Below are positions 6,651-32,081 of a DNA stretch of 32,081 nucleotides, piece by piece. Under the pieces are notes generated by a model. The model was not told where the DNA came from, made no database searches, and worked only from the letters and a program-made list of their open reading frames with translations. The stretch lies in sequence record NZ_CP063125.1. One strand, given 5' to 3'. The position numbers were made by a program, and so were the translations under genes. The DNA is from a plasmid. The stretch's first letter is position 1. Each line of letters opens with the position of its first letter.

Positions 6651-6653
6651 AAC

Positions 6654-7070: not shown

Positions 7071-7080
7071 TTTTTACTCC

Positions 7081-10864: not shown

Positions 10865-10878
10865 TTTTGCCCTTTCCC

Positions 10879-12805: not shown

Positions 12806-12807
12806 AA

Positions 12808-13593: not shown

Positions 13594-13607
13594 AAAATTA
13601 AACTCCC

Positions 13608-13745: not shown

Positions 13746-13747
13746 AA

Positions 13748-14770: not shown

Positions 14771-14787
14771 ATCTTCTCCTTAAATGA

Positions 14788-15471: not shown

Positions 15472-15492
15472 ATTAAATCTCCATTGAGTTAA

Positions 15493-18238: not shown

Positions 18239-18298
18239 TAACGCCTCCTATTTTTAAGTATTCAAGGTAAGTTTTTACCTTGAATACAATATATTGAA

Positions 18299-18607
18299 TT
18301 ATGAAAAAATCCCTTGTGCCCAAGTTACGCCTTTTACGATACCGCCGGCAATCGCACCATAAACGAATGCCATAGCAACGTCAGCCCACGAACCGCGGTG
18401 CATAAGTGCCATAATTATGCAGTACATAGCGTAAATAAGTGTCGCAACAAGGATAAAACCATAAAGCCACGTTTTAACTTCATTTGCTTTGTCTGTTGCG
18501 GCATCTAAACCGCCGGCATAAGCACCAGGAATAAAAAAGATAAGTGCTGCAATGGCAAGAAGAGCCAAAACATTTAATGCACTTTGTTGTTTTTGAGTTA
18601 AGGTCAT
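18299..18607 (-). CDS. virB2: VirB2-family pilin precursor
   Basis: The start is taken at ATG 18607 (AAGGA SD), giving MTLTQKQQSALNVLALLAIAALIFFIPGAYAGG.... The protein has a long signal/leader and two hydrophobic helices, which is typical pilin architecture. Confidence 0.65.
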   Translation of the reverse strand: MTLTQKQQSALNVLALLAIAALIFFIPGAYAGGLDAATDKANEVKTWLYGFILVATLIYAMYCIIMALMHRGSWADVAMAFVYGAIAGGIVKGVTWAQGIFS

Positions 18608-18624
18608 ATACGTTTTCCTTAAGT

Positions 18625-19302
18625 TTATCTTCTGAAATCCCCAAACACGTCCCACGGTTTAGCCGGAGGGGGAGGAGTTTGAGGGGCTTGAATTGAGGTT
18701 GTTTGTTGAGCTGCAACCTCATTTGACGGAGAACCTGAACTATCAGATTCAGTCAAAGGCTTGATAGCCGGAACTTTATAAGTCTTTGCGGCGGATTTAT
18801 TGATACGATCAACATAAGAAGAACCGTCTTTCTCTTTTTTAAATCCGCGAATCTCATTACCTGAATAGTAACAAGACGCGGCTAGACGTAATAAATCTTG
18901 TTCCGGTTTATTTGGATTGTTTTTTTGTGCCGACGCATAACAGGCTTTAAATATGCCGGCTCCGGCTTCAATGTTCTTGCACGCCTGGAACATATTCGAC
19001 TTATTCATACCGTATTCAGTAAAGTTCTTGCTATTTACTTGCATTAAACCCACGGAATAGCTACGGTGTTTTGTCGGGTGATTTTCCAACTTAGCAATCG
19101 TTTGCAATGCCTCATCTTCTGATTGAGGCTGCTTAAACTTGAATTTATCCTCCTCTTTCACGTCGCTATCATAAACGACTGCGATTGCATAAGGGTTGCG
19201 ACTACTTTCAACACCAATGACAGTATGCAGTGTTTCCGGTGCAACATCAGTAGCGCATTGTGCAAATAAGCTAAGTAACATTTGTGTAGATAATGAAGCC
19301 AT
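18625..19302 (-). CDS. virB1: VirB1-family lytic transglycosylase
   Basis: The SLT-domain motifs VIGVESSRNPYA and GLMQVN are present. The protein is 225 aa and is the first enzyme gene of the operon. Confidence 0.8.
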   Translation of the reverse strand: MASLSTQMLLSLFAQCATDVAPETLHTVIGVESSRNPYAIAVVYDSDVKEEDKFKFKQPQSEDEALQTIAKLENHPTKHRSYSVGLMQVNSKNFTEYGMNKSNMFQACKNIEAGAGIFKACYASAQKNNPNKPEQDLLRLAASCYYSGNEIRGFKKEKDGSSYVDRINKSAAKTYKVPAIKPLTESDSSGSPSNEVAAQQTTSIQAPQTPPPPAKPWDVFGDFRR

Positions 19303-19308: not shown

Positions 19309-19665
19309 TTATTTTTTTACATTTAATTTGGTATAAACATTGCCATTATTGACTTGTGTATAAGTGCTGTCGGTGATTTTTGCTCTAATATGTCCTGAAA
19401 GCTCATAGATTTCACCATTTTCAATTTTTACCGTTCTAGTGGAGTTATCGCCTGTTGGTGTTCCATTGCTTCTTTTAGCTATGAAGCGTTCAATATAATT
19501 ATTCTCTTTTTGTGTTTTTTCTAATTCTTTAATATAAGTAAAATCACCTTCTTGCCGTACATAAACACCGCTATAATCCTTTGCCTCTTCTTTACACGCC
19601 GTTAAAGATAATGCTGCAATGCCAATCACGACCACACTTTTTAACAATTTTACTAACTTAATCAT
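19309..19665 (-). CDS. Lipoprotein of unknown function (118 aa) leading the T4SS operon
   Basis: The start is taken at ATG 19665 with an AGGAG SD, giving MIKLVKLLKSVVVIGIAALSLTAC (lipobox LTAC). The ORF-track N-terminal extension overlaps the upstream gene and is ignored. Confidence 0.5.
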   Translation of the reverse strand: MIKLVKLLKSVVVIGIAALSLTACKEEAKDYSGVYVRQEGDFTYIKELEKTQKENNYIERFIAKRSNGTPTGDNSTRTVKIENGEIYELSGHIRAKITDSTYTQVNNGNVYTKLNVKK

Positions 19666-19897
19666 TTTTGCTCTCCTTCTTCTCTGTTCTTTCCATTTTC
19701 TTTCTAAGTTCGTTTTCCACAAATTCCTCAACGATTGAAGGGGTTAAGTATTTGTCCAAAACAAAGTTTAAAACATCACTCACTTTGATTGGGCGACCGC
19801 ACTCTTGAGCTATCGCCACGGCAAGAGATTCAGCCATTGTTTTACGCGTGCCTGCAACTCTAAACGTCGTTGCCTCGGGTCTTTTCTTGATTGCCAT
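19658..19897 (-). CDS. Small basic protein (79 aa) and first gene of the T4SS operon. It may be a transcriptional regulator
   Basis: The start is taken at ATG 19897 with a GGAG SD, giving MAIKKRPEATTFRVAGTRKTMAESLAVAIAQE.... The protein has no TM segment. It is followed by a roughly 1 kb noncoding region carrying the operon promoter. Confidence 0.4.
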   Translation of the reverse strand: MAIKKRPEATTFRVAGTRKTMAESLAVAIAQECGRPIKVSDVLNFVLDKYLTPSIVEEFVENELRKKMERTEKKESKND

Positions 19898-20917
19898 TTT
19901 ATTTCTCCTGTGGTTAAAATGCAATATATTTTACACATATATATTGTATATTTTTAAGATTCGCGCCTTTATAGGAGCAAGATGGTGAGTATTCTAGCAA
20001 AAAACAAAGACGTTTTATAAATTTTGTAGGGTATAAATCAAATAATCTTGATCTTTAAAGTGAATAGGGGTAAGATCCTTGTAAATTCGCAACCGGTATC
20101 GATGATTTGCCGGTCTATTTACAGATACGTAGATAGAAAAAAAGCCCGCGAATGCGAGCTTTTTTCCTTGTGTTTGGAACGCTACCAACGTTTTAAACAC
20201 GGTGCAGTTAAGGAATTTGAAAGTGACTAACTGCGAAATTTCAATTTAATTATACTGATTTGTGTTTTATATGCAAGCACTTTCGGTTAAAAAGTATATT
20301 TTGCAGTCGCATTAAATTTATCGCGAAGTAAATTTAATAAAAATCACCAAAAGGCTTATGCCTCTCTTCAAAAATCTTAACTAGCACTTAATCATATTTT
20401 GATTGGGTGGTAGGAATAAGAGTCACTGGCAATCAATCTTATAATCTAATACCAGCGGAAACAGCAAATTAGATCGTTACGAGTGGTTATTTTATCGAGT
20501 GCAGCGCATTTATATTGGGTAACCTTGAATGCAGTGTCAGCGAGAAATAGCGGTTGAGAACGTGCTGTGCGGTTATATTGCCGTAATCTCAACAGGGCGA
20601 GGAAATATATCTGATCGCCTCCTAGATGAAAGCGGGTCGGCTCCGGGTATGCTAAATGCAACGAGCAAACGTTTTTTTAGGTACGCACTAAGTCTATAAC
20701 AGAAATGTATAGGCTTAGGGCGAGTATTACCTAAACTCTGCCTAGTCTTCCAAGTCTGCTGTGTGGACGATCCTTTTAATATAAAGATCATTTTAGTTGT
20801 CTAGTTATATACATTTCTTAAATTAAATAAAAAAAAGTTAGCTTATTAGAAGTTAAATGATGAAATGTATTGGATTTTAATTTTAAAAATAACTTGTTTT
20901 TTATTACTTTTTTACTT

Positions 20918-20947
20918 GTATTTAATCTTAACTTTGTTATACTTCCT
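20918..20947 (+). promoter_or_regulatory. Candidate sigma70 promoter of the par operon
   Basis: The sequence TTTTTTACTTGTAT-(16/17)-TATACT shares the TTTTTTACTTG(C/T)AT block with the accessory-gene promoters. It is followed by an AGGAGG SD and the parA ATG. Confidence 0.4.
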
Positions 20948-20991
20948 ATTAAATCAATGTTTGAACCTGTTCAATCTTAGGAGGATTTAAA

Positions 20992-21651
20992 ATGGGAAAA
21001 ATCGTTTTGTTTGATAGCGTAAAAGGTGGGGTTGGCAAATCAACGTTGCTGGTGCAATTTGTTTGTGCAATGGCGAAAACAAAAAAAATAGCAGCAATGG
21101 ACTGTGATCCGCAAGGAAGTCTTGAAAACTGGGCTATTCGACGTTTCAATAATTTTCAATCGCTTGATTTTGATATGCTTGAGGCTGACTTATCATTTTT
21201 GACTGAAAATAAAAAAGAATACGATTATATTTTTGTTGATTCTGCCGGGGCTGATAATGAAATTGGGCGTGAGCTGTTTTCAATGGTTGATATTATAATT
21301 TCGCCTTTACAACCCACAACAGCGGCATTTGATACTATCCCAATACATAGCAAAATCGTGAATGAATCGATTGAATTTAATCCTAATCTTGAATTGTTTT
21401 ATTTGTTGAATGAATGCTCTACGCATTCAAAAGACCAGGAGGCAAACGATACTTACTCAAATCTTTGCCAATTCATTGAATCAACCTATGGAAAACGCTT
21501 TCACGTCGTACCTAATTTTGTTTTTGATAGAAAGGTGCTTAAAACCAGTTATGGCGTAGGATTGAGCTGCTTTGATGGTCGTAAAAATAAATCAAAAGAT
21601 GAAATTACAAGTATAATTTCATTTATTTTTGGAGGTAAAATTGATGGCTAA
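20992..21651 (+). CDS. parA: ParA/Soj-family partition ATPase
   Basis: The deviant Walker A motif KGGVGKST is present and the protein is 219 aa. It is translationally coupled to the downstream gene. Confidence 0.85.
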   Translation: MGKIVLFDSVKGGVGKSTLLVQFVCAMAKTKKIAAMDCDPQGSLENWAIRRFNNFQSLDFDMLEADLSFLTENKKEYDYIFVDSAGADNEIGRELFSMVDIIISPLQPTTAAFDTIPIHSKIVNESIEFNPNLELFYLLNECSTHSKDQEANDTYSNLCQFIESTYGKRFHVVPNFVFDRKVLKTSYGVGLSCFDGRKNKSKDEITSIISFIFGGKIDG

Positions 21652-22189
21652 GTTATTAGATTTGACTGAAAAGAAAATGAGCTTTATCAAAAAAGCGAAT
21701 AACGGCAATATCAAACCGCATAATCAAGTTGAATCAGTAAAAGAAACCAAAATTATCAAAGTAGAGGATTTTAAGCCGGCAAAACGTGGCAGACCTCGCA
21801 AAGGCGAGGAAAAAAATCCGGCTGATCGCGTTCAAATTACGCTATCAGTTGCGCCTGAACAAGCTGAATTTTTTAATGAATTGGTTGAAAAAACGGGTGA
21901 ACGATTGGGCGATCTTGTTTGGAAAAGCTTATTGTTTGCAAAATTTAAACCGCTTCCTGATGAATTTTTATTTGAATACTCAACACTTGTTTATAACAAG
22001 AAAAATGGTATTAGGGTTCAATTTCAACGCGTTTTAGATTCGCATTCGAGCTTGAAAAGCCTATCCGAAACTTATAAAGAGATGGGGTATAAAATTAAGC
22101 TGAAAGGCGTTGTGTTATTATATTTGCTTAATTATATGAAAAATTATCTCGGTGAAGATATTTCAAAATATCAAGCCTTTGCGGATTAA
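21644..22189 (+). CDS. Putative centromere-binding partition partner (RHH-like, a ParG/KorA analogue, 181 aa)
   Basis: The ATG at 21644 has a GGAGG SD and overlaps the parA stop. The basic AT-hook-like KRGRPRKG is followed by a ribbon-helix-helix-like segment RVQITLSVAPEQAEFFNELVEKTGERLGDLVWKSL. Confidence 0.5.
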   Translation: MAKLLDLTEKKMSFIKKANNGNIKPHNQVESVKETKIIKVEDFKPAKRGRPRKGEEKNPADRVQITLSVAPEQAEFFNELVEKTGERLGDLVWKSLLFAKFKPLPDEFLFEYSTLVYNKKNGIRVQFQRVLDSHSSLKSLSETYKEMGYKIKLKGVVLLYLLNYMKNYLGEDISKYQAFAD

Positions 22190-22213
22190 AGAACAAAGAA
22201 ATTGTAAACTGAA

Positions 22214-22256
22214 AAAGAGGGAGTAAATAGCGCAGTCTTTTACTCCCTCTTTTTTA
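22214..22256 (+). terminator. Rho-independent terminator of the par operon (copy A). An identical copy lies at 27412-27454
   Basis: The hairpin AAAGAGGGAGTAAA-loop-TTTACTCCCTCTTT is followed by a 6-T run. Confidence 0.7.
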
Positions 22257-22884
22257 GTTGAGCAACCGGAGCCGTCAGGCGTAGGGCGGTAGCCTTTGGG
22301 GCTTCCCCTCCCGTTGGTCGGGTCGGGCTATATTTTTCGGCTGCACGTCCGGCAAAAGCCGGTCTTTTCGCTCGAAAAACTCAACCAAATAAAACAGGCT
22401 GCTTTTTCGCGGCCCGTTTTATCTGTTTTCGCCCGTCCGGGTTACTATCCCTAAGCTGTTCCGTCCTCCGGACGGCTTAAAAGGGCTTCGCCCCTTAAGA
22501 ATCCCCATAAAGGGGTTAAAAACCCCTTTAAACCCCCCTTATTCTTTTCTTGCACTTTTACTCTCCTCTTCCCTCGATAACTTCTCTACGGGCTTTATTT
22601 TTCGTTAGGGTTCTGCAGGGCGTGAATGCTTGTGGGCTGTTTGATTTTGAGCGTGTTAAACGGTCATTTCTCCGCTCTGACATCGAGCAGGGTTCCGGGC
22701 AAATGCGGCGGCTTTGCCCTTCCATCAAGGGGGGGATTCTTGCAAATCCCCCCTTAATAATCCCCTTTCTTGTCGGAAAATTTAGCAATATATGCAAGTA
22801 AAAAAAGACTTTATTTAATAAATAAAAGTGCGAATATATTTAGATTTATTTTATAAATAATGCAAAAAATAATGTAAAAAATAC

Positions 22885-22913
22885 TTGCAATTAAAAGCAA
22901 AAAAGACTATAAT
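22885..22913 (+). promoter_or_regulatory. Sigma70 promoter for the J-domain gene. An identical copy at 28083-28111 drives the DUF2958-like gene
   Basis: The sequence is TTGCAA-17 nt-TATAAT with a T/A-rich upstream region. Confidence 0.6.
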
Positions 22914-22996
22914 TTATCTCAAGTTGAACGGGAAAACGTTCAGCGAGTTAGCCAAATGTGGCTAGTCTTTTCTTTATACCTAAATGAGGTAATCAA

Positions 22997-23518
22997 ATGA
23001 ATATCAATGAAGCTCTTAATATCTTAAATCTTTCCGGCTCTGTAACAAAAGCAGATATTGCAAAGGCTTATAAACGTCTTGCTGTAAAATATCACCCTGA
23101 CAAAAATCCGACTGGTGCGGAAATGATGAAAATCATCAATGCAGCGTATGAAATGCTTAAAAATCTTGATTTAGAGGAAATTAAACATACCGATCAAGAA
23201 AACGCATATAACTACGCGGACGTTTTGGAAGAAGTGATCCGTGAAGTTTTGAAAATGCACGGCGTGATTATTGAAATCTGCGGTAACTGGATTTGGCTTG
23301 CGGGGGAAACCCGTCAATATAAAGAGCAAATTAAGGCTTTAGGCTGCTTGTGGGCTTCTAAAAAGAAACAATGGTACTTTCGACCGACTGAACATAAAAG
23401 TTCACGTCATAAAGCGTGGGATATGGACAAAATCCGCTCTCACTATGGTTCAGAAGTCTTAAAAGCAAATTCTTCTCTTAATGACTTCAAAAAAACAAGT
23501 TTACCGGCAGCAGCTTAA
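22997..23518 (+). CDS. J-domain (DnaJ-like) protein, 173 aa
   Basis: The N-terminal J domain has the YKRLAVKYHPDKN motif containing HPD. The gene has its own promoter, leader and terminator. Confidence 0.7.
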   Translation: MNINEALNILNLSGSVTKADIAKAYKRLAVKYHPDKNPTGAEMMKIINAAYEMLKNLDLEEIKHTDQENAYNYADVLEEVIREVLKMHGVIIEICGNWIWLAGETRQYKEQIKALGCLWASKKKQWYFRPTEHKSSRHKAWDMDKIRSHYGSEVLKANSSLNDFKKTSLPAAA

Positions 23519-23528
23519 TTTTATTGAT

Positions 23529-23550
23529 AGCCCGTGAAAACGGGCTTATT
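23529..23550 (+). terminator. Terminator after the J-domain gene
   Basis: The hairpin is AGCCCGT-gaaa-ACGGGCT, followed by a T-rich stretch. Confidence 0.5.
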
Positions 23551-23656
23551 GGGGCAAAATATGTGTTTAAATTTTTTAGATTTAGAAAGTAATAAAAGAG
23601 CCAAGAAAAGCTTAAATTAAAGCATTAAATAATCTTTAAAATACTTGTTTTTTTAC

Positions 23657-23685
23657 TTGCATTTTTAGTTTTATTTTACTATAAT
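23657..23685 (+). promoter_or_regulatory. Sigma70 promoter with the conserved leader for the 136-aa gene
   Basis: The sequence is TTGCAT-17-TATAAT, preceded by TTTTTTAC. Confidence 0.6.
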
Positions 23686-23779
23686 GTTTCAAGTTAAACG
23701 GGAATTGTTACTAAAGCTTACCATTTAACAATATGCCAAAAGTGGCAAAACTAATCTCAAATCTTAAGAGGATTTTCTT

Positions 23780-24190
23780 ATGAGCCTAAAAATTGAAAGA
23801 GCTTTTAAAAAAGCGGGTATCCCTGAAATGCCAATAGTTCGCCGTCATATTCTAGTTAATCTTGCAAAAGTGGGGGCTGATTTAGATAAATTAACAAGTA
23901 CAGAAATTGGCTTTATTATTAAAGCATTGCATATTGGTTATCACAACGCAAAAGGCAGTCAAGAAGCTGATTATATGGCTGATATGGGCTGCGTTTGGAT
24001 TGGTGGCGAAGTGCAAAAATTGTTACCAATAGAAGCCCTAAAAAGTATTCGAATCATTAAGGAAAGCAAGCCGATTGAAAAGAAATCTATTCCCTCTGGG
24101 TGGAAATATGGCGTGCTTCCTTATGGGTGGGATCGCGTTGAGTATGAGCGAAAAACGCGCTACAAGTTAGATTTTACAGAAAGCTGTTAA
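23780..24190 (+). CDS. Hypothetical protein (136 aa)
   Basis: The start has an AAGAGGA SD and the gene has its own promoter and leader. I recognise no family. Confidence 0.55.
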   Translation: MSLKIERAFKKAGIPEMPIVRRHILVNLAKVGADLDKLTSTEIGFIIKALHIGYHNAKGSQEADYMADMGCVWIGGEVQKLLPIEALKSIRIIKESKPIEKKSIPSGWKYGVLPYGWDRVEYERKTRYKLDFTESC

Positions 24191-24195
24191 AGTGT

Positions 24196-24224
24196 TTGAC
24201 AGATAATTATTTGAGGCGTACTAT
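24196..24224 (+). promoter_or_regulatory. Near-consensus sigma70 promoter driving a short noncoding transcript
   Basis: The sequence is TTGACA-17 nt-TACTAT, immediately after the stop of the 136-aa gene. Confidence 0.55.
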
Positions 24225-24230
24225 CTTAAC

Positions 24231-24349
24231 AAGCAATCAGTATTTTTGCTTTTGCACCCTGTAAAGGGTGAGTGTTGAAACAAAAAAACATAGAACTATC
24301 TTTTTGATAGCAAGAAGACCGCCTTTTTAAGAATTAGGCGGTTTTTTTG
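24231..24349 (+). ncRNA. Candidate ~120-nt sRNA or transcription-attenuating leader
   Basis: A consensus promoter is followed about 110 nt later by a hairpin ACCGCC-loop-GGCGGT plus a 7-T run. There is an internal hairpin CACCCT-gtaa-AGGGTG. No ORF with an SD lies inside. The 88-aa gene starts 37 nt after the T-run. Confidence 0.4.
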
Positions 24350-24385
24350 TGTTTAATTTTAAAATTTTAATATAGGGGTGTAAAA

Positions 24386-24652
24386 ATGCAAAAAAGAAGT
24401 AGAAGTATTTCTTACCGGTTACAGAAAACAAGCAACTCAGCAAAAAGAGTTGAAATTCTAACCGAATGGGCTAATCAATGGAAATTTGAGCATATTGATT
24501 TAATTGAACGCCTTAAAGGCGGAATTGATAATCAAGATATGAATGAAATTCGGATTGCTCTCGGGCAGTTAAGAGCAGTTACGGAAAAAAAACACGAGGC
24601 TTTACATAATATATTTAGATTTCTTTTAGATGATAGAAATGATAAAAAATAG
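24386..24652 (+). CDS. Hypothetical protein (88 aa)
   Basis: An AGGGG SD lies 8 nt before the ATG. It lies downstream of the promoter/terminator leader unit. Confidence 0.45.
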   Translation: MQKRSRSISYRLQKTSNSAKRVEILTEWANQWKFEHIDLIERLKGGIDNQDMNEIRIALGQLRAVTEKKHEALHNIFRFLLDDRNDKK

Positions 24653-24684
24653 CAAAATTATTTAAAAATAAAGTGTTTTTTTAC

Positions 24685-24713
24685 TTGTATTTTTAGTTTT
24701 ATTTTACTATAAT
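24685..24713 (+). promoter_or_regulatory. Sigma70 promoter with the conserved leader for the 194-aa gene
   Basis: The sequence is TTGTAT-17-TATAAT, preceded by TTTTTTAC. It is almost identical to the 23657 promoter. Confidence 0.6.
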
Positions 24714-24807
24714 GTTTCAAGTTAAACGGGAATTGTTGCTAAATCTTACCGTTTAACAATATGCCAAAAGTGGCAAAACTAATCTTAAATCTTAAGAGGA
24801 TTTCAAA

Positions 24808-25392
24808 ATGACTAATCAAGACTTGAAAAGCTGTTTCTCTACGGCAGTAACCGAATTTTTTAACACTAACCCGCTAAATGCTTTTTGGAAAAAAGCACAA
24901 AATGAGCTTGATTTCTGCGCTCAAATTCAAGGCGTGAAAGTGAGTATTGAATTTATTGTAGGATTTAGTCGAGTTAAAGCCGTTGTTTCTGTTGGTAAAT
25001 ATAGAGAACGGGGTTATTTCTACCATAAAATTTCTTTTTCTCTTGATAAAAAATCATTCGCTAATGATTTTAAAAGATTGGCTTTTGATAAAGTGGAAAG
25101 TGCAATCAACGAAATTGTGTCATATAGAAATGAACGCAAACTAATCGAAGAAAATTTTGAACATAAATTACAAGCCTTTCGCCGTTATTTTCCCTTTGAA
25201 GTTAATTGGTCGGGACGACTTTCAGCAAGTGGGATCTCAATGCCTAAAAAGCTAAGAGCTATTGAGCTTTCGGGGGTGAATGGCGAAAAAGATTATTATT
25301 TAAAGCAGCTAACTTTTTCATCTGATGATACTGATTTTTTAATGAAAATTTGTGCTTGCGTTTCTGAATTGATTAAACAAGAAAACGCATAA
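24808..25392 (+). CDS. Hypothetical protein (194 aa)
   Basis: The start has an AAGAGGA SD and the gene has its own promoter and leader. I recognise no family. Confidence 0.55.
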   Translation: MTNQDLKSCFSTAVTEFFNTNPLNAFWKKAQNELDFCAQIQGVKVSIEFIVGFSRVKAVVSVGKYRERGYFYHKISFSLDKKSFANDFKRLAFDKVESAINEIVSYRNERKLIEENFEHKLQAFRRYFPFEVNWSGRLSASGISMPKKLRAIELSGVNGEKDYYLKQLTFSSDDTDFLMKICACVSELIKQENA

Positions 25393-25469
25393 ATAAGTGA
25401 ATTTAGCGGTTAAATATCTTGATTTAGCCGCTAGTTAGGCAAATAATATCAATATATTAAGGCTTAAAT

Positions 25470-25760
25470 ATGAATCTACTATCAATGACTAAAAATCAAA
25501 TTTTTAATTTACTTTACAATCTTTCAGGTTACTCTTTCAACGAAAAAGCATTTGTTGAGCTGCTCAACAAACGCGGATTTGAAGCCTCAACGGGCAAAAT
25601 CAGAAATTGGCGACGTGCAAACACTGATAATCAAAATTACCGCCCTGTGCCGGATTTTGTCTTAGAAGTGATTTTTGAAGAGTTCTTTAAAGCAAAAAGA
25701 GCGAACGACGGCGTTTTAACGTTACCATTCATTGAACCAGTGAAAAAAACGAAAAAATAG
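25470..25760 (+). CDS. Hypothetical small basic protein (96 aa)
   Basis: An AAGG SD lies 8 nt before the ATG. A TAATAT -10-like box and an inverted repeat TAGCGG..CCGCTA lie upstream. Confidence 0.45.
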   Translation: MNLLSMTKNQIFNLLYNLSGYSFNEKAFVELLNKRGFEASTGKIRNWRRANTDNQNYRPVPDFVLEVIFEEFFKAKRANDGVLTLPFIEPVKKTKK

Positions 25761-25793
25761 TTACCTTGTAACTGATAAATATACGGAGAAATT

Positions 25794-26165
25794 ATGTTTT
25801 ATTATGTTGCTTATGATTTGGACGGTATTAAACTTTTTGAAACAGATGAAGATGGGATTATTCACGAATTTAAAGATGAAAATCATTTTTATGATCCTGA
25901 AGATAAGCTTATCTATTCCCAGTATAGCGGAAGAAAAGTTCCTACTTCAAATTATCAATGGGAACCTGAAGAAGCCAAAAAAACACTATTAGAATTAGCA
26001 TTAGAAAACGCTCAAAATAACGGCGATGGGCGAGTTTTATTTCAGCCTAATCAAAGTAAGAAAGATTTGATTGAGGATATAGAACAGTTCCTAGCAGATA
26101 ATGATGATATTGACGCGGATTTAGTTGAAGTGTTGAATAATATCATCAAGGAGTTATTGGAATAA
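25794..26165 (+). CDS. Strongly acidic small protein (123 aa, about 30 Asp+Glu versus about 11 Lys+Arg). Candidate DNA-mimic / anti-restriction-like protein
   Basis: The start has a GGAG SD. A palindromic operator-like AGTTACCTTGTAACT lies just upstream. The net charge is roughly -19 with acidic residues clustered at the C-terminus. It sits in the putative leading region. Confidence 0.5.
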   Translation: MFYYVAYDLDGIKLFETDEDGIIHEFKDENHFYDPEDKLIYSQYSGRKVPTSNYQWEPEEAKKTLLELALENAQNNGDGRVLFQPNQSKKDLIEDIEQFLADNDDIDADLVEVLNNIIKELLE

Positions 26166-26170
26166 AAAAA

Positions 26171-26197
26171 ATACCTAGCAAAAGCTAGGTATTTTTA
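26171..26197 (+). terminator. Strong rho-independent terminator
   Basis: The hairpin is ATACCTAGC-aaaa-GCTAGGTAT, followed by a T-run. Confidence 0.7.
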
Positions 26198-26394
26198 CAA
26201 AACAAATATGCGGTATTTGCTCGATAATAGCTATCAAACGGAGCTATTATCATAAAAAAGCGGCCAAAATACAAGTATTTCAGCCGCTTTTTTATGATAA
26301 CGCGGATCGCTTCGCGTTCCGCTCAATTTGTTCGGAGGAATAATGAATAGAGAATTACTCTCAATAAATAAATTTTAGCAAAAGCCGCTTAAAA

Positions 26395-26964
26395 TTAAGT
26401 GGCTTTTGCTTCTTTTCTCAACCTGTATGCTGTTGAATTAGATACATTGTATTTTTGAGCTAATTTAGCGATAGAATAATTTTTTTTGACATCACGCCGA
26501 AATGCCTTTTTCTGCTCTTCTGTGATCGCTTTAGGTCTGCCCCCTTTTCCTGCTTCACCTTTAGCCAATCTTCCCTCCAAAGTGCGTTCTCTTATCCAGT
26601 TTCTTTCCATTTCCGCTAATGAAGCCATAAAAACGCACTTCATTTTATCAAAAGGATCGTTACGCCTTTCTGTATCAATCATTCCGTCAAGGCTTTTTAG
26701 GCAAATTCCTCGACTTTCTAAATCTTCATATAAGTTTAAAAATTGGCTTGTACTTCGTCCTAGCCTATCTAATTTAGTTACTACGATTGTATCACCCTCA
26801 CGGGCGAAAGCTAATAATTCATCAAGCCTTGCTCGATTCTTTGATTTTTCCCCCGAATTTTTACCCACAAATATTTTAAAGCAACCCGCTTTTTCAAGTT
26901 GCTTTACTTGTTCTTCATAGCTTTGACCGACTGTACTTACTCGCGCGAACCCTATTAACGCCAT
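26395..26964 (-). CDS. Serine recombinase of the resolvase/invertase family (189 aa)
   Basis: The N-terminal catalytic motif is ALIGFARVSTVGQS, with GDTIVVTKLDRLGRS and a C-terminal HTH (YSIAKLAQKYNVSNSTAYRL). No transposase is adjacent. Confidence 0.85.
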   Translation of the reverse strand: MALIGFARVSTVGQSYEEQVKQLEKAGCFKIFVGKNSGEKSKNRARLDELLAFAREGDTIVVTKLDRLGRSTSQFLNLYEDLESRGICLKSLDGMIDTERRNDPFDKMKCVFMASLAEMERNWIRERTLEGRLAKGEAGKGGRPKAITEEQKKAFRRDVKKNYSIAKLAQKYNVSNSTAYRLRKEAKAT

Positions 26965-26987
26965 AAACTCAAATAATCCTGTTTTCC

Positions 26988-27281
26988 TTAAAAATCTCTA
27001 TTTCTTAGAAAATGACCTAGACTGTTAATATAGCCATCTCCTCTATCTTCCAATGGCTCAAATTCCTCAAAATATTTCCCATTTTGGAGCTTGTATAAAT
27101 GGGCAAAGTATTTATCCCTTACATCAAAATGACCTAATACCCAAAATTCTTTTTCTTTTATTTGAGGATAGTTTAATAGTAGCAAATTAGAATCTTCTCT
27201 AAATTCGTCCCAGTTTTTTATAAGTGATCTAATAAAATCAAAATCTTTACTTTTTATAAAGATAGCTTCTTCTTGATTCAT
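26988..27281 (-). CDS. Hypothetical protein (97 aa) co-transcribed upstream of the resolvase
   Basis: An AGGAG SD lies 7 nt before the ATG. Its stop is 23 nt before the resolvase start. Confidence 0.5.
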   Translation of the reverse strand: MNQEEAIFIKSKDFDFIRSLIKNWDEFREDSNLLLLNYPQIKEKEFWVLGHFDVRDKYFAHLYKLQNGKYFEEFEPLEDRGDGYINSLGHFLRNRDF

Positions 27282-27400
27282 AAATCTTCTCCTATGTTTT
27301 CAAAACTCAACAGATTTGAATAAGATGATAATGCTATATTTAAAACTTAGCAAGTTTTAGTTTTGAATATAGTCAAAATAATTTATTAGTGTTTTGACTA
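27282..27400. promoter_or_regulatory. Candidate res/recombination site and promoter region of the resolvase operon
   Basis: Several short inverted repeats are present. One is TAGTCAAAA-13 nt-TTTTGACTA. Another is TAAAACTT-agc-AAGTTTTA. They lie directly upstream of the operon, in the arrangement typical of serine resolvases. Confidence 0.3.
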
Positions 27401-28191
27401 TGTAAACTGAAAAAGAGGGAGTAAATAGCGCAGTCTTTTACTCCCTCTTTTTTAGTTGAGCAACCGGAGCCGTCAGGCGTAGGGCGGTAGCCTTTGGGGC
27501 TTCCCCTCCCGTTGGTCGGGTCGGGCTATATTTTTCGGCTGCACGTCCGGCAAAAGCCGGTCTTTTCGCTCGAAAAACTCAACCAAATAAAACAGGCTGC
27601 TTTTTCGCGGCCCGTTTTATCTGTTTTCGCCCGTCCGGGTTACTATCCCTAAGCTGTTCCGTCCTCCGGACGGCTTAAAAGGGCTTCGCCCCTTAAGAAT
27701 CCCCATAAAGGGGTTAAAAACCCCTTTAAACCCCCCTTATTCTTTTCTTGCACTTTTACTCTCCTCTTCCCTCGATAACTTCTCTACGGGCTTTATTTTT
27801 CGTTAGGGTTCTGCAGGGCGTGAATGCTTGTGGGCTGTTTGATTTTGAGCGTGTTAAACGGTCATTTCTCCGCTCTGACATCGAGCAGGGTTCCGGGCAA
27901 ATGCGGCGGCTTTGCCCTTCCATCAAGGGGGGGATTCTTGCAAATCCCCCCTTAATAATCCCCTTTCTTGTCGGAAAATTTAGCAATATATGCAAGTAAA
28001 AAAAGACTTTATTTAATAAATAAAAGTGCGAATATATTTAGATTTATTTTATAAATAATGCAAAAAATAATGTAAAAAATACTTGCAATTAAAAGCAAAA
28101 AAGACTATAATTTATCTCAAGTTGAACGGGAAAACGTTCAGCGAGTTAGCCAAATGTGGCTAGTCTTTTCTTTATACCTAAATGAGGTAAT
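27401..28191. repeat. 791-bp direct repeat, copy B, identical to 22203-22993
   Basis: Base-for-base identity at a 5198-bp offset. It ends 2 nt before the ATG of a different downstream gene. Confidence 0.9.
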
Positions 28192-28193
28192 TT

Positions 28194-28628
28194 ATGTTCA
28201 ATGTAACAGCAATTCAAAAAGCTGAAAATCAGTTAAAAACTTATTCTCAATTTTTCCCTAAAGCTCAAGCGGACGTATTGAAATCACTTCTTGCAAGTGA
28301 GGAATCGTCTTATGTTTGCAATCTGATTGATTCAATTATTCAAAAAATTGAGTCAATGCCTAGTACTTATGAAACAGAAGGGCAAGGCGAAAATGCCTTT
28401 GCTATTCTTCACTATTTTGGGGGAGCGTGTGATTTTTACATCACAGAAAAAGATATTGAGAACGGGCAAAATCAAGCCTTTGGATTGGGCTATATTTGCT
28501 TTCCTGAACTGGGCTATATCAGCCTTCCCGAATTGTTCAAATCGCCTTATATTGAGCTTGATTTGCATTTTACCCCTCAACCCGTTGGGAAGTTAAGAAA
28601 AGAGCTTTTAAAAAGAGTGGGGCTTTAA
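28194..28628 (+). CDS. DUF2958-like protein (144 aa), a family typical of plasmid/ICE leading regions
   Basis: The central motif AFGLGYICFPELGYISLPEL fits the conserved DUF2958 core (AFGL..G...ELGY.SL.EL). This rests on my recollection of the family signature. Confidence 0.55.
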   Translation: MFNVTAIQKAENQLKTYSQFFPKAQADVLKSLLASEESSYVCNLIDSIIQKIESMPSTYETEGQGENAFAILHYFGGACDFYITEKDIENGQNQAFGLGYICFPELGYISLPELFKSPYIELDLHFTPQPVGKLRKELLKRVGL

Positions 28629-28633
28629 TTTAA

Positions 28634-28655
28634 AGAGGGGATACCCCCTCTTTTA
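28634..28655 (+). terminator. Terminator after the DUF2958-like gene
   Basis: The hairpin is AGAGGGG-atac-CCCCTCT, followed by TTTT. Confidence 0.6.
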
Positions 28656-28687
28656 ATAAAAAAATTAAAAAATAATTTGTTTTTTAC

Positions 28688-28716
28688 TTGCAATTTTATT
28701 TTTAATTTGCTATTAT
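28688..28716 (+). promoter_or_regulatory. Sigma70 promoter with the conserved leader for the 83-aa gene
   Basis: The sequence is TTGCAA-17-TATTAT, preceded by TTTTTTAC. Confidence 0.55.
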
Positions 28717-28811
28717 AGTCTCAAGTTAAGCGGGAATGGTTGTTAAATCTTACCGTTTAACGATATGCCAAAAGTGGCAAGTTAAAATAAAATCTTATGA
28801 GGATTTAAAAA

Positions 28812-29063
28812 ATGACATTGACTACAAAACAATATGCGGAAGCCTTAATTTTTTCCTTTGAGAAAAAGGAGAAAATGAAATCTCAAGCCTTTAAAGGGTA
28901 TGAATGGGCGGAAATTTTCTCTTATATAAAGTCTTATCAAACTTTTGTAAAATTGAATAGCTATCAGAAACTATTATTTGTGGTATTAGCTTATTTAAAG
29001 CCGACCCCGCAAAGTAATTTTGTTATTGAGCAGTTAAGCAAAAGAGAAATCTTGTTTATTTAG
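28812..29063 (+). CDS. Hypothetical protein (83 aa)
   Basis: The start has a TGAGGA SD and the gene has its own promoter, leader and terminator. Confidence 0.45.
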   Translation: MTLTTKQYAEALIFSFEKKEKMKSQAFKGYEWAEIFSYIKSYQTFVKLNSYQKLLFVVLAYLKPTPQSNFVIEQLSKREILFI

Positions 29064-29074
29064 TTAAATAATCA

Positions 29075-29099
29075 AAGCCCCCTAAAAGGGGGCTTTTTT
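29075..29099 (+). terminator. Rho-independent terminator
   Basis: The hairpin is AGCCCCC-taaaa-GGGGGCT, followed by a 6-T run. Confidence 0.7.
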
Positions 29100-29202
29100 A
29101 TTTCATAAAAAAAATTTAAAAATAAATGCCTTTTTGCTTGCATTTATTTTTAAGGCGTTTTAGGGCAAGGTTTAGATTTTTCTTCTCACTAGGTTTTGCT
29201 TG

Positions 29203-29270
29203 GCATATTTTGCCCCCATTGAGGGGGCAAAATATGCGAAAGGGGGCGGCATTATATGCCGCCCCCTTTC
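29203..29270. promoter_or_regulatory. Two abutting perfect 15-bp hairpins between convergent genes
   Basis: The first is GCATATTTTGCCCCC-attga-GGGGGCAAAATATGC. The second follows immediately: GAAAGGGGGCGGCAT-tat-ATGCCGCCCCCTTTC. Confidence 0.5.
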
Positions 29271-29286
29271 TATTGATTTGAGTAGT

Positions 29287-29610
29287 TTACTTTTTATCTT
29301 TAATAGCAAATTTCTTATAACTAGGACGCATAGATTCCAGTCTTTCTGTTACCATTTCTTTATGTATTCTGTTTGCGTATTCGTTAAGAGTTTTCCAGGC
29401 AATATAGGAAAACAATACACTTAAAATCAACTTGTTTACATATAATGGTAACTCAATAAAGATAATTTCTATTAAAACAGTACAACCTAAACTTGCAAAA
29501 AGTAGCTTTTTGTTGTTTCTCTTGTAGCAAATTACCCATAAAACGCAACTAAGACCTATGGCAATAATGTTTAAAAAATTTGCTAAAATAAATATGTAAA
29601 TACTTTGCAT
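29287..29610 (-). CDS. Small integral membrane protein (107 aa, about 3 TM helices). One possibility is an entry-exclusion-type protein
   Basis: The N-terminal half is hydrophobic. It is the last gene of the leader operon. Confidence 0.45.
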   Translation of the reverse strand: MQSIYIFILANFLNIIAIGLSCVLWVICYKRNNKKLLFASLGCTVLIEIIFIELPLYVNKLILSVLFSYIAWKTLNEYANRIHKEMVTERLESMRPSYKKFAIKDKK

Positions 29611-29621
29611 TTTACTTGCCT

Positions 29622-30386
29622 TTATTTTGATTTTAGCTCATTGTCAATGTTACTGATAATAATTTTTTGGATTTTATCAGCCTCTTTTGGCGCAATCTTT
29701 TTCACTTCTTCAAAGCCTTTATACAAGCCGACTTGATATGCCGTTTCTTTGTCTTCGGGTTGTTTTGATTTTGTGAGAATAAAGCCTGATACGGCAATGT
29801 TTATGATTGTTAGCCCAGTCAAAACCCATAATAATGGGGTTTTTGATTTGTTTAATACTTCTGATTTTGCTTGTGATTTTTGAGGTTGTACACTTTCAAA
29901 GGATTTTTTAATTTCCTCAATTTTCTTGTTAGAAAACGAATCAAGGCTTGTTATAACTTGATTATTTAAGTCTAAAACTGATTTTGAAAACGCCGTGTGC
30001 ATTTCTGTTCCTGCGTCATCTATTACTTCTAAGGCTTTTCCTATTCCGGCACTAAGTTCATCTAACTTTTCTTGTAATTTTGCGTCGATTACATCGCCTA
30101 TTTGTTTTGGGATTGCGTGTAATGATTCTGTAATTAAAGTAGAGTAGTACTCCATCACGTTTTTTTGCGACAGAATCACGGCGAGAATTGGATCATCTGT
30201 TGAGATTTTTATGTGTAGTTTAGCGAAGCAATCAATAATGAAATTTCTGATAAGCTGATCAAATTCTTCATCATTAAGTGATAAACGTTCTTTGGTTTTT
30301 TCTCGACTATCTTCAATTTTTGTTTGTAAATCGATTAAATCGGTTGTTTCCTGGATAACAGGTTCAATTTGATTTTCAAATTCCAT
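29622..30386 (-). CDS. Coiled-coil protein with a C-terminal membrane anchor (254 aa), in the TraM-like position of the leader operon
   Basis: The true start is ATG 30386 (MEFENQIEPV) with an AAGGA SD. The ORF-track N-terminal 61 aa are a read-through of the GC-rich repeat and are rejected. The TM helix is LLWVLTGLTIINIAVSGFIL. Confidence 0.55.
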   Translation of the reverse strand: MEFENQIEPVIQETTDLIDLQTKIEDSREKTKERLSLNDEEFDQLIRNFIIDCFAKLHIKISTDDPILAVILSQKNVMEYYSTLITESLHAIPKQIGDVIDAKLQEKLDELSAGIGKALEVIDDAGTEMHTAFSKSVLDLNNQVITSLDSFSNKKIEEIKKSFESVQPQKSQAKSEVLNKSKTPLLWVLTGLTIINIAVSGFILTKSKQPEDKETAYQVGLYKGFEEVKKIAPKEADKIQKIIISNIDNELKSK

Positions 30387-30402
30387 AATAGATCCTTTTG
30401 TT

Positions 30403-30560
30403 TTTGGGGCTTTCCCTCCCGTTGGTCGGGTCGGGCTATATTTTTCGGCTGCACGTCCGGCAAAGCCGGTCTTTTCGCTCGAAAAACTCAATCGAATAAA
30501 ACGGGCCACTAAAGCAGCCCGTTTTATTCGCTTTCGCCCATTCGGGTTACTATCCCTAAG
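30403..30560. repeat. Third, diverged partial copy (~158 bp) of the 5' core of the GC-rich repeat
   Basis: It aligns to 22294-22456 with scattered substitutions. One internal hairpin, AAAACGGGC..GCCCGTTTT, keeps its stem but has a different loop. Confidence 0.8.
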
Positions 30561-30592
30561 CCGGTTCAAAAAAGGGCGATAATATCGCCCTT
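30561..30592 (-). terminator. Rho-independent terminator after the TraL-like gene
   Basis: On the minus strand the hairpin AAAGGGCGATA-at-TATCGCCCTTT is followed by a T-run. Confidence 0.7.
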
Positions 30593-30596
30593 TTCA

Positions 30597-31337
30597 TTAT
30601 TCTGCGGTAGATTGTGTTTCGTTAAAGATAGGGTCTAATTGTTCGTAAATGTCGTTAAATACGCGTTTTAAACGGTTTTTAGCCATTAAGCCAAAATTAC
30701 TATCTTGAAGAGCTTCTACAAGGGTCAAACGTGATTTTGTCATTTTTTCTAAATCTGCGGTAAATGCGTCAGAATCACGATTTACGACTTTAATTACACC
30801 GGCTGTTTTATCTGCAACAACTTTTTTCTGCGTGTTGGAGATTTCAACATCACCCTGAAATTCGTTCAACCAAATAATCAATTTTACGTTTTTAGAATTT
30901 TTTACTAATTCATAAAGACTGGCTAAACCCTGTAAAGTATCACTTTGAGATTGTCCGCCGACAATTACAGTGTGAATAAAAACAGGTCTATCTAATTCAT
31001 CAAATAAATCAATAACGCCGTTATCTTCAATATATTTCATCATTGGAACAAATGTAGAAGCACCGTTATCAATAACGAATGTTTTATTTTCTTCATTTAC
31101 CATCAATTCAAAAATGTTATCAAATTTTGATTGGATAATTGCGCCATTTTTTAAAATTTCGATTGGATATGCGTTAATTCGTTCAAAACTTGCAAATGAT
31201 TTATTTACGGGGTCTGTATCTGCGCCGACTAAATCAACTTTTTTATAATCTAAAAAGTATTGTGCGAGTATTGAAGAAATAAATGATTTGCCTACGCCAC
31301 CTTTACCTTGTAATACAATGTTAATGCTATTATTCAT
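30597..31337 (-). CDS. ParA-like P-loop NTPase of the conjugative leader operon (TraL of RP4 / StbB of R388 type), 246 aa
   Basis: The Walker A motif GKGGVGKS is present. It is sandwiched between a small DNA-binding-type protein and a membrane coiled-coil protein next to the putative oriT. Confidence 0.7.
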   Translation of the reverse strand: MNNSINIVLQGKGGVGKSFISSILAQYFLDYKKVDLVGADTDPVNKSFASFERINAYPIEILKNGAIIQSKFDNIFELMVNEENKTFVIDNGASTFVPMMKYIEDNGVIDLFDELDRPVFIHTVIVGGQSQSDTLQGLASLYELVKNSKNVKLIIWLNEFQGDVEISNTQKKVVADKTAGVIKVVNRDSDAFTADLEKMTKSRLTLVEALQDSNFGLMAKNRLKRVFNDIYEQLDPIFNETQSTAE

Positions 31338-31349
31338 TTTAAATACACC

Positions 31350-31781
31350 TTATTTGTTTTGTTTTTCTTTTTCAGCTAATAAACGAGCAAATCTATCATC
31401 TACAGCTTGTTTATCGCTTCTATTATCGTGCAATTCTTTTTTCTCTTCTTGTTTATCAAGAATTGAAAAAAGATTGTCTTTTTTTACGACTTGAGCCGTT
31501 TTAGGTTGGGTTTCAATCAATTTTTCTGGTTGGTTATTTCCTCCTGTTTTTTTAGTTAATCTTTTCCTTGCTCTATAAAGCATATTTTTAAAGTATTTAA
31601 ATGTTACTTGTTTTTCATCATTAAAAAGATAATTGAAAATATCTTGTAAAGAATATCTTCTATTTACGCATTCATTTAAATCTTTTATGTGGGTATCAAT
31701 AGAGTATTGAATCTTGTTCGGGCGGTTTTCAATCTCTTTTTTGAGGGTGTTCAATTTTTCCGCTATGTAGTCGTTTTCCAT
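31350..31781 (-). CDS. Small basic protein (143 aa), a candidate oriT-binding accessory protein (TraK/StbA analogue)
   Basis: It is the first gene of the leader operon. Phased direct repeats lie immediately upstream. It has a basic RARKRLTKK segment. Confidence 0.4.
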   Translation of the reverse strand: MENDYIAEKLNTLKKEIENRPNKIQYSIDTHIKDLNECVNRRYSLQDIFNYLFNDEKQVTFKYFKNMLYRARKRLTKKTGGNNQPEKLIETQPKTAQVVKKDNLFSILDKQEEKKELHDNRSDKQAVDDRFARLLAEKEKQNK

Positions 31782-31854
31782 TTATTACCTCATTACGTTA
31801 GATTTTTGTAGTTTATTTCATAAAAAAAGTATAGTCAAACAAAATTTGCTTTCT

Positions 31855-31945
31855 TTTTGCTTTTTTTATGGTTTCTTATTGCTTCCATTATGCTTCTTTA
31901 TTGGTTTATTGTGCTTTTAATGTGCTTTCTTTATGGTTTCCATAT
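31855..31945. repeat. About 8 tandem imperfect 10-11-bp direct repeats (TTATGGTTTC-like) with phased T-tracts
   Basis: The units are TATGGTTTC, TTATTGCTTC, CATTATGCTTC, TTTATTGGTTT, ATTGTGCTTTT, AATGTGCTTTC, TTTATGGTTTCC and ATATGCTTTTT. Helical-repeat spacing implies intrinsically bent DNA or an array of binding sites upstream of the TraK-like gene. Confidence 0.55.
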
Positions 31946-32081
31946 GCTTTTTGTTGATTACTGTAATAATTTTACAGGCACGACAGCGATGTTTACAAAG
32001 TGCAAGCACCATTGTAAAATCGACCGTGCGAAAGGGGGAACCCTTTCAAACCCCAACGCCCTTACAGGCTAGTTTATCCCT

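Follow-up and report, generated by a model that had tools for sequence, protein, structure and literature searches.

A perfect 791-bp non-coding repeat with a covarying core element in the predicted leading region of a pF1947-type plasmid

Masai and Arai reportedly described the Frpo/ssi repeats of the F-plasmid leading region in 1997, and the single-strand signals of leading regions are so far known essentially from such F/IncI-type Frpo sequences. Leading-region islands with single-strand promoters are a general concept (PMC11541004). The F leading region contains two direct repeats of about 555 bp, which are 89% identical to each other, lie directly upstream of ssb and of another leading gene and correspond by position to the Frpo/ssi repeats (PMC11541004). 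The ssi sites and the sso elements of rolling-circle plasmids and ICEs are orientation-specific, hairpin-rich and non-coding, and from them the synthesis of a complementary strand begins on one of the two single strands only (PMC3167613, PMC4595007), a concept that includes ssiA-type priming (PMC3167613). Here we analysed the plasmid NZ_CP063125.1 over its whole length of 32,081 nucleotides (nt), in the following called the window, and describe a non-coding direct repeat of 791 bp, R, together with the structured core element of about 160 nt inside it.

Both copies of R are found in an island of ten genes, mostly small and of unknown function, which comprises everything between the partition (par) genes and the traK-L-M-like operon. 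An earlier note on the same DNA had proposed a leading-region island at this location, and its position between the par and tra genes was confirmed. We give about an even chance to the reading that it serves for establishment and carries cargo in the leading region of a conjugative plasmid of the pF1947 type (MOBP/MPF_T). The leading-region concept itself is already published; the concrete leads are the structured element, a J-domain protein that links this plasmid to IncX plasmids, and a missing replicon. We found nothing useful in the literature on the biology of the pF1947 family, on DUF2958 or on J-domain proteins in leading regions.

The repeat R and its core element

R is found directly upstream of two island genes, J173, which encodes a J-domain protein, and p144, which encodes a DUF2958-like protein. 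The two copies are identical at 791 of 791 positions. A third copy of the core alone is found among the tra genes.

22203-22993, plus strand: R1, non-coding direct repeat, ending 3 nt before the ATG of J173
27401-28191, plus strand: R2, non-coding direct repeat, ending 3 nt before the ATG of p144
22207-22259 (R1) and 27405-27457 (R2): bidirectional terminator hairpin with a 21-bp stem, at the 5' end of R
22295-22456, plus strand: core copy in R1
27493-27654, plus strand: core copy in R2
30403-30561, plus strand: third core copy, in the traL-traM spacer, antisense to the tra genes, 89% identical to the copies in R

From its 5' to its 3' end, R consists of the terminator hairpin, a 37-nt block, the core element, a GC-rich structured middle, a promoter, a hairpin leader and a ribosome-binding site (RBS). 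The interior between terminator and promoter is about 0.55 kb of GC-rich sequence. Compared with shuffled sequences, R is strongly folded as minus-strand single-stranded DNA (z = -7.5) and as plus-strand RNA (z = -7.4). Its centroid fold contains local hairpins only, and beyond the core about 350 nt of further non-coding structure are conserved. Structured 5' leaders had been noted earlier for each gene; those of J173 and p144 are in fact part of this perfect repeat, which the earlier note had missed.

A metagenomic relative of the plasmid, L011, is 95% identical to the window and retains both copies of R, which excludes an assembly artefact. The two copies in L011 are 97% identical to each other, and orthologous copies are about 95% identical between L011 and the window. 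This pattern indicates concerted evolution of R. The cargo between the copies differs in L011, which lacks the small genes p136 and p88 and has other small minus-strand genes beside the resolvase. In the metagenome and Logan data, the contigs of close relatives (L012-L016) stop exactly at R, just upstream of p144, as expected where assemblies break at a repeat present in several copies. R is thus an expression unit and probably a recombination point as well.

Several other identities of R were considered and rejected. The open reading frames (ORFs) of 83 and 79 amino acids (aa) inside R are interrupted by a 1-nt indel in the comparison with L011 and are not conserved, so R is not coding sequence. 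It has neither terminal inverted repeats nor a transposase and is therefore no insertion sequence or miniature inverted-repeat transposable element. The enclosed resolvase is unlikely to use R as its res sites, because direct repeats would be deleted and both relatives retain the segment.

The first 93 or so nt of R (22203-22295 and 27401-27493) are shared with small Pasteurellaceae plasmids, namely pJR2 and a 2.6-kb Glaesserella plasmid, and the 37-nt block GTTGAGCAACCGGAGCCGTCAGGCGTAGGGCGGTAGCC alone is also found in the gonococcal pJD4 beta-lactamase plasmid family. The matches to this 5' part of R lie at 5019-5112 of L001, 3799-3837 of L003 and 1720-1807 of L004. The block is about 95% identical between plasmids, and the terminator hairpin covaries in pJR2 and pJD4. 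Terminator hairpin and block may be another cis signal.

The core is a multi-helix junction, in which the closing stem P0 (GGCTT/AAGCY) surrounds the hairpins H1, H2, H3 and H4. The joining sequences CTATA, CTCAAC, GTTTTCG and TAACTATCCCT are near-invariant. H1 and H3 have unrelated sequences across five lineages and always keep their pairing, and one base pair of H2 is CG in 7, AU in 6 and UA in 1 of the distinct copies. In the conserved skeleton 98.5% of the cells are paired, compared with 52-62% after a slide by one column. Covariation in the core reaches 0.155 versus 0.075 in shuffled alignments, and none of 500 shuffles reached the observed value. Judged by these alignments, the pairing of the core is under selection.

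We searched for the core with an exact-pattern scan (one genome per species), with a TraL-based metagenome scan and with a covariance model, and found it in this plasmid clade only. Besides the window, its hosts are pF1947, a Rodentibacter abscessus plasmid, Exercitatus varius, [Haemophilus] felis, L011 and two further metagenomic lineages. In each core-bearing plasmid (seven plasmids or lineages) the traL-traM spacer contains one copy, antisense to the two genes; in the metagenomic contig L021, position and orientation are the same as in the window. No core was found at more distant TraL loci or in IncX4. The fully sampled plasmids have three copies on the same strand, and in the window all copies lie within the first 10 kb or so from the junction of the circle. 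The remaining copies are found upstream of the J gene in three plasmids or upstream of a gene for a 338-aa protein in pF1947 and Rodentibacter. The pF1947 copy before the 338-aa gene (8762-8850) consists of P0, H1 and H4, with H2 and H3 deleted, and the Rodentibacter copy upstream of the same gene is full length. The comparison of the copies suggests that the closing stem, H1 and H4 may be the minimal functional unit. A role as partition site was not supported, since the par genes of pF1947 have no copy nearby.

The minus strand, which is the predicted transferred strand (T strand), folds better than the plus strand in all 16 core copies with RNA parameters and in 15 of the 16 with DNA parameters. 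In H3, about 9 pairs are G.T on the minus strand only, versus 2 on the plus strand only.

Another explanation is that R and the core act as a structured RNA, either as a regulatory RNA that would be transcribed from R1 and R2 and act on the homologous traL-traM leader or as a ColE1-like primer RNA or origin, and we consider this quite unlikely. The stability of the plus-strand RNA and the G.U pairs that P0 and H4 form on the plus strand agree with it, and, read in minus sense, the tra copy is part of the traM 5' leader, following the terminator of traL and preceding the RBS of traM. An inverted promoter box is located inside R on the minus strand (22793-22804). A primer RNA would also suit a circle in which no ORF matches a replication-initiator or primase family. 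However, no convincing promoter was found for the core in either sense. On the plus strand a terminator immediately precedes the core and TTGAGC-18-TAGGGC is the only hexamer pair, and the minus-strand box, tried as the -35 box of a promoter, has no -10 box at 17 nt. R and the core had no match in Rfam 15 at the gathering thresholds, including families of the RNAI/RNAII type, with terminator-like noise only at E <= 5, and no similarity to ColE1. Moreover, the orientation of the core relative to the neighbouring genes differs at the three sites, more in keeping with a strand signal for the whole plasmid than with an mRNA leader.

With regard to the missing replicon, neither a TraC-type primase nor a homologue of the 338-aa candidate gene of pF1947 was found in the window. 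A non-coding stretch of 1.07 kb (19925-20991) lies between the type IV secretion operon and parA; it contains no iterons and no excess of DnaA boxes. A vegetative origin in this stretch or in R was tried as a candidate and rejected for the lack of both features.

Predicted transfer origin and entering strand, and parallels in F and IncX4

The window is a complete circular 32-kb conjugative plasmid of the MOBP/MPF_T type and of Pasteurellaceae character. The circle, on which the reading of the earlier note was conditional, is shown by L011, in which window positions 27277-32081 run without break into positions 1-6523. The backbone was assigned by family searches (Pfam and NCBIfam), which cover NikA/MobC, the relaxase, TraL and the VirB/D4 genes. 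It is syntenic with pF1947 of Haemophilus influenzae biogroup aegyptius, typed MOBP/MPF_T as well, at about 68% nucleotide identity over the backbone.

41-427: NikA/MobC-like accessory protein, by family searches
417-4277: relaxase of 1286 aa with LPD7 domain, by family searches
4340-19302, minus strand: topoisomerase III, SSB, TrbM, VirD4 and VirB11 to VirB1, by family searches
4340-6604: topoisomerase III gene (topB)
6654-7070: ssb
20992-21651: ParA, followed by a 186-aa partner (the pair covers 20992-22189)
29622-31781, minus strand: TraM-like, TraL and TraK-like proteins, with a 107-aa membrane protein on the same strand at this end of the window
31782-32081 and on into 1-40, minus strand: predicted origin of transfer (oriT), a block conserved in the plasmid family

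TraL matches the NCBIfam model PRK13886 (E = 5e-53), and for the TraK- and TraM-like proteins no family was detected. The 315-aa ORF at 29622-30569 is over-called, because its first 61 or so codons read through the third core element; the start of the TraM-like protein is most likely at about 30386 (MEFENQ...).

The junction of the circle has the relaxosome genes on one side and the divergent traK-L-M-like operon on the other. Between the NikA-like and the TraK-like gene, the plasmid family keeps a block with the inverted repeat GAAAGGGTTCCCCCTTTC and the motif ...GTCGTGCCTG/T (ending GTGCCTG/T), which is a candidate nick site by its conservation. A first guess for the nick, TAGCCTG/T in an inverted repeat spanning the junction, was dropped because it is not conserved in pF1947. 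The likeness of the 3' end of the core to the junction sequence was judged coincidental for the same reason, and the covariance model of the core finds no copy at oriT. The start codon of the TraK-like gene is separated from the conserved block by an 11-bp-phased T-rich array (31845-31952) of 8.8 units, which can also be read as 4.9 units of 22 bp.

In IncP plasmids the traK-L-M leader operon enters the recipient first. The IncP nick lies on the 3' side of a repeat, in the strand whose transfer continues into traK-L-M, and the bent DNA next to it is bound by TraK. The window resembles RP4 of IncP in its divergent relaxase and traK-L-M operons around oriT, in its homologous TraL and in the phased, bent-DNA-like array on the traK side. 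By analogy with RP4 the array fits a TraK bent-DNA binding region, with iterons as an alternative. The island is located 3-10 kb from the predicted oriT on the side of traK-L-M, the leader side. If the IncP arrangement holds here, the minus strand is the transferred strand, enters traK-first and has the island 3-10 kb from its 5' end, on the leading side; nick site and polarity are predicted. The leading-region geometry proposed earlier is thus reasonable, with its polarity predicted from the IncP precedent. On condition that the minus strand is the T strand, eight of the ten island genes use the T strand as template.

The layout of R parallels that of the F repeats. In both plasmids, non-coding direct repeats of about 0.55-0.8 kb stop just before the start codons of leading genes, and they are co-oriented with genes that are read towards oriT from the T strand, which in the window is the predicted one. 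In F, where the layout was checked, the leading genes are oriented with respect to oriT and the tra operon as the island genes are here. The folding strength is similar, with z = -7.0 for the T strand of the F repeat and z = -7.5 for R. The fold of the F repeat is one long imperfect hairpin of about 330 nt. Unlike in F, no ssb, psiB or ardA gene follows R, and the window has a third core copy inside the tra leader operon.

The second parallel is in IncX4 (NZ_CP041105.1), where the J-domain protein, annotated as DnaJ, is 47-50% identical to J173. The IncX4 J gene heads a cluster of small genes between taxA/taxC/oriT and pir, is read towards oriT, and is preceded by a TTGCAA-17-TATTAT promoter and a GC-rich structured non-coding stretch of about 0.5 kb (z = -4.5; the upstream region examined is 19465-20856). 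Within this stretch, 59 nt are 90% identical (E = 6e-17) to ColE1 1307-1364 and are therefore ssiA-like. ColE1 1307-1364 lies between the origin and rop, which we take to be the place of the PriA-dependent ssiA site. RNAII and rop converge in ColE1; because of this convergence and the orientation of rop in the ColE1 record, the active strand of the ssiA-like site would be the template strand of the IncX4 J gene. R has no such 59-mer, and IncX4 in turn has neither the 791-bp duplication nor the core element and does have a recognisable Rep (pir). The strand-consistent placement of the core fits sites of the ColE1 ssiA or phiX174 type and sso elements, to which R has no homology.

A single-strand initiation role is favoured for R because F and IncX4 place single-strand signals at its position. 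This is purely an argument by analogy, and by the same analogy the structured element most plausibly works on the incoming single strand. In the mechanism that we propose, the minus strand would enter the recipient traK-first, as in IncP. On the incoming single strand the R repeats would be initiation signals for primer synthesis or transcription, as counterparts of the Frpo/ssi repeats of F and of the ssiA-like site upstream of the IncX4 J gene, and the leading 10 kb or so would be made double-stranded, or transcribed, first. The shared strong promoters would then fire in a recipient that does not yet contain a plasmid repressor (zygotic induction). The resulting burst would supply the J-domain protein, which would recruit DnaK, as well as the DUF2958-like protein, the acidic protein and others that aid establishment. 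The identical R repeats would double as recombination points, and we propose that the cargo differences between relatives arise because these repeats recombine.

Genes, promoters and proteins of the island

Eight of the ten island genes are on the plus strand and are transcribed towards the junction. In order, they encode J173 (the 173-aa J-domain protein), p136, p88, p194, p96, p123, p144 and p83, named by their length in aa. All eight exist at the sizes given in the earlier note and have plausible ribosome-binding sites. The note had let all genes point in one direction; this does not hold for the serine resolvase and the 97-aa gene beside it, which are on the minus strand. The gene-strand bias is the same in pF1947.

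22885-22913, plus strand: J promoter TTGCAA-17-TATAAT, with an identical copy for p144 at 28083-28111
22997-23518, plus strand: J173, J-domain protein with HPD motif and conserved alpha/beta C-terminal domain
23657-23685, plus strand: p136 promoter TTGCAT-17-TATAAT, in the first part of the cassette copy 23627-23775
23780-24190, plus strand: p136, function unknown
24196-24349, plus strand: p88 leader with promoter TTGACA-17-TACTAT (24196-24224), hairpins and a strong terminator (24316-24349)
24386-24652, plus strand: p88, basic helical protein, function unknown
24655-24803, plus strand: second cassette copy, 91% identical to 23627-23775, drives p194
24808-26165, plus strand: probable operon of p194 (24808-25392), p96 (25470-25760) and p123 (25794-26165)
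26167-26196 and 26247-26300: bidirectional terminator and hairpin with 26-bp arms, between the convergent p123 and resolvase genes
26395-27281, minus strand: resolvase operon of a 97-aa protein of unknown function (26988-27281) and the serine resolvase (26395-26964)
28194-28628, plus strand: p144, DUF2958-like, three-helix bundle and beta domain
28659-29096, plus strand: third cassette copy (65% identical), p83 (28812-29063) and terminator (29074-29096)

Perfect TATAAT -10 boxes with 17-nt spacers are found upstream of J173, p144, p136 and p194. A promoter/leader cassette of about 150 nt recurs upstream of p136, p194 and p83 and, in diverged form, before J173 and p144. It consists of an A/T tract, the box TTTTTACTTGYA, a 17-nt spacer, TATAAT, a start near CAAGTT, the hairpins GTTAAACGGGAA...CCGTTTAAC and then GCCAAAAGTGGC, and the RBS. 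In this AT-rich DNA, promoter-like hexamer pairs are not above chance (44 vs 36 +/- 7), so the promoters reported earlier are credible because one cassette recurs before five genes and not from hexamer counts. Terminator-like hairpins are enriched about three times (30 vs 9.9 +/- 3.5 in shuffled sequence), which bears out the terminators of the earlier note in general, with none within p194-p96-p123.

The claim that each gene forms an autonomous module with its own promoter and terminator was not upheld. The genes p194, p96 and p123 look like one operon, because the gaps of 77 and 33 nt between them contain no terminator. In the p88 leader, promoter and terminator stand together, with the terminator about 100 nt past the promoter, and this segment is either a transcription-attenuating leader or a small RNA gene. 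This leaves about five or six transcription units in place of eight.

The plasmid contains the box TTTTTACTTGYA 9 times, versus 1.9 expected, and 7 of the 9 are within 20909-29142, where they precede parA, p136, p194 and p83, follow p83 or lie in inverted orientation within R1 and R2. Many promoters of the window share this one box, as do promoters in IncP, where the KorA/KorB operators are common to many of them. The island promoters are a shared and probably co-regulated set. The distribution of the box suggests one regulator for the par and island promoters, for which p186 (the partner of ParA), p88 and p96 are candidates. Past the p83 terminator, the segment 29100-29286 contains a further copy of the promoter box (TTTTTGCTTGCA) and then three strong hairpins, of which two are adjacent and perfect (29203-29236 and 29238-29270). 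No convincing ORF was found in this segment.

J173 was confirmed as a J-domain protein by its Pfam match (E = 1e-13), by the HPD motif, which is conserved in 40 homologues, and by structural neighbours that are J domains. Its AlphaFold model (pLDDT 87) shows the J domain and a conserved alpha/beta C-terminal domain with the motif GNWIW-SGET...K-WYYRP; the fold search in the PDB gave no structural neighbour other than J domains. It is not a canonical DnaJ (type I Hsp40): the match is confined to residues 8-56, the NCBIfam DnaJ scores are far under the cut-offs, and the C-terminal 90 residues form an alpha/beta domain unrelated to canonical DnaJ. The J173 family is found in 2,747 PLSDB records, of which 2,216 are conjugative, including IncX3/X4, Enterococcus and Acinetobacter plasmids. 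It is a very common plasmid backbone gene.

The label DUF2958-like for p144 stands by transitive homology, with 20 of 45 aligned homologues matching PF11171 (DUF2958) at a best E-value of 2e-11. p144 itself has no Pfam match at E <= 0.1, and its pF1947 orthologue matches PF11171 with E = 0.007, under the gathering threshold. The AlphaFold2 model of p144 (pLDDT 93) has no informative structural neighbour in the PDB and viral structure libraries, with three-helix-bundle matches only. The structure-prediction check suggested in the earlier note thus recovered the J domain of J173 and three-helix bundles for p144, and no anti-defence fold. J173 and the DUF2958-like gene are the genes conserved in the whole family.

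The remaining proteins are less widespread. p136 and p88 are both absent from L011, 1.8 billion proteins yielded only 21 cluster representatives for p194, and p123 is found in close relatives only. p123, p136 and p194 are near-orphans, so the novel content that the note had considered possible applies to these three, but not to the J-domain gene. p123 is acidic as described (isoelectric point 4.17, net charge -19). p96 matches DUF1456 (E = 9e-4) and is homologous to an annotated DUF1456 gene in pF1947, and p83 is conserved in L011 and in a further contig, L007. The resolvase is a serine recombinase (PF00239, E = 5e-33; HTH_7, PF02796, E = 2e-5), and homologues are found in pF1947 and in plasmids of A. 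actinomycetemcomitans and H. parainfluenzae.

No island protein matched anti-restriction, anti-SOS/PsiB, anti-CRISPR, methylase or SSB families in Pfam, NCBIfam, PHROGs, PDB sequences or fold searches, in line with the statement of the earlier note that classical anti-restriction and anti-SOS genes are missing. Its suggestion of anti-defence content was left with zero family or fold matches and rests on position. In such an island the small proteins would neutralise restriction, CRISPR, SOS or other defences of the recipient, and we regard this as unlikely. Position and orientation fit the published pattern (PMC11541004), p123 is small and very acidic like DNA-mimic anti-restriction proteins, and close relatives differ in their gene content, a feature of arms-race loci. 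J-domain proteins are tools with which phages and viruses hijack Hsp70. Against these points, the searches gave no homology or fold similarity to known anti-defence proteins, acidity alone is weak evidence, and the family-wide genes J173 and the DUF2958-like gene are backbone-like and not variable.

Part of the region is ordinary maintenance, namely the resolvase and the nearby ParA. This raises an explanation in which the whole island is a maintenance and accessory region, with par genes, a resolvase for multimer resolution and mixed cargo, that lies beside oriT because the plasmid is small, and R is a promoter duplicate kept by gene conversion. The hairpins of R would then be terminators and operator sites, with no single-strand role and no early programme. 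We find this improbable. ParA and the resolvase lie inside or beside the island, the corresponding region of pF1947 has a Fic/VbhA toxin-antitoxin pair together with ParA, and DUF2958-like homologues elsewhere adjoin ParA/ParB/RPA genes of replication and partition. R itself has a terminator at its start and a promoter with RBS at its end, and the lack of anti-defence homology points the same way. However, maintenance leaves unexplained why a covarying core was copied to the traL-traM spacer and lies on one strand throughout, why about 350 nt of further non-coding structure are conserved, and why F and IncX4 have parallel layouts.

Possible meaning for plasmid establishment

Several observations weigh against a leading-region establishment island. 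Two of its genes, the resolvase and the 97-aa gene, are on the minus strand, and eight of ten genes in one direction is not significant by itself. The T strand, its nick site and the early expression of the genes are predictions. ssb and topoisomerase III adjoin the relaxase gene and would be the last to enter by the predicted polarity, whereas ssb is a leading-region gene in F/IncI plasmids. The wobble evidence for the strand is mixed, since P0 and H4 have their G.T pairs on the plus strand. R differs from the F repeat, which is a single hairpin that rebuilds a promoter (-35/-10), in having local hairpins and a multi-helix junction, and blastn found no match between R and the F leading region including the 555-bp repeats. 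Nor is R similar in sequence to the ssiA site of ColE1 or the region in IncX4. The J promoter region is unstructured as single-stranded DNA (z = -0.04), which rules out a classical Frpo hairpin there. In the searches named above, the island has no known anti-defence, SSB, methylase or PsiB gene. For MOBP2 plasmids no anti-defence enrichment was reported (PMC11541004), a comparison for which the window is typed to the MOBP level only.

Leading regions decide plasmid survival in the first minutes inside a new cell. With R, a different plasmid lineage has the same layout as F, with long repeats before genes that point towards oriT, and an unrelated, uncatalogued, covarying element in these repeats. 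As a tentative suggestion, possible rather than probable, the core and the structured part of about 0.55 kb would be an undescribed class of T-strand signal of MOBP plasmids in the Pasteurellaceae, and the J protein a general early establishment factor. If so, the signal would start complementary-strand synthesis or transcription through a multi-helix junction and not through a Frpo hairpin. The J protein would recruit host DnaK to the entering plasmid, where it may remodel, for example, the relaxase-DNA complex, replication proteins or the host defence. The J-domain protein is common to the IncX3/X4 plasmids that spread carbapenem and colistin resistance, and such a factor would be general across about 2,700 plasmids, including the IncX3/X4 carriers of NDM and mcr-1. 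The finding would thus bear on how non-F plasmids establish themselves.

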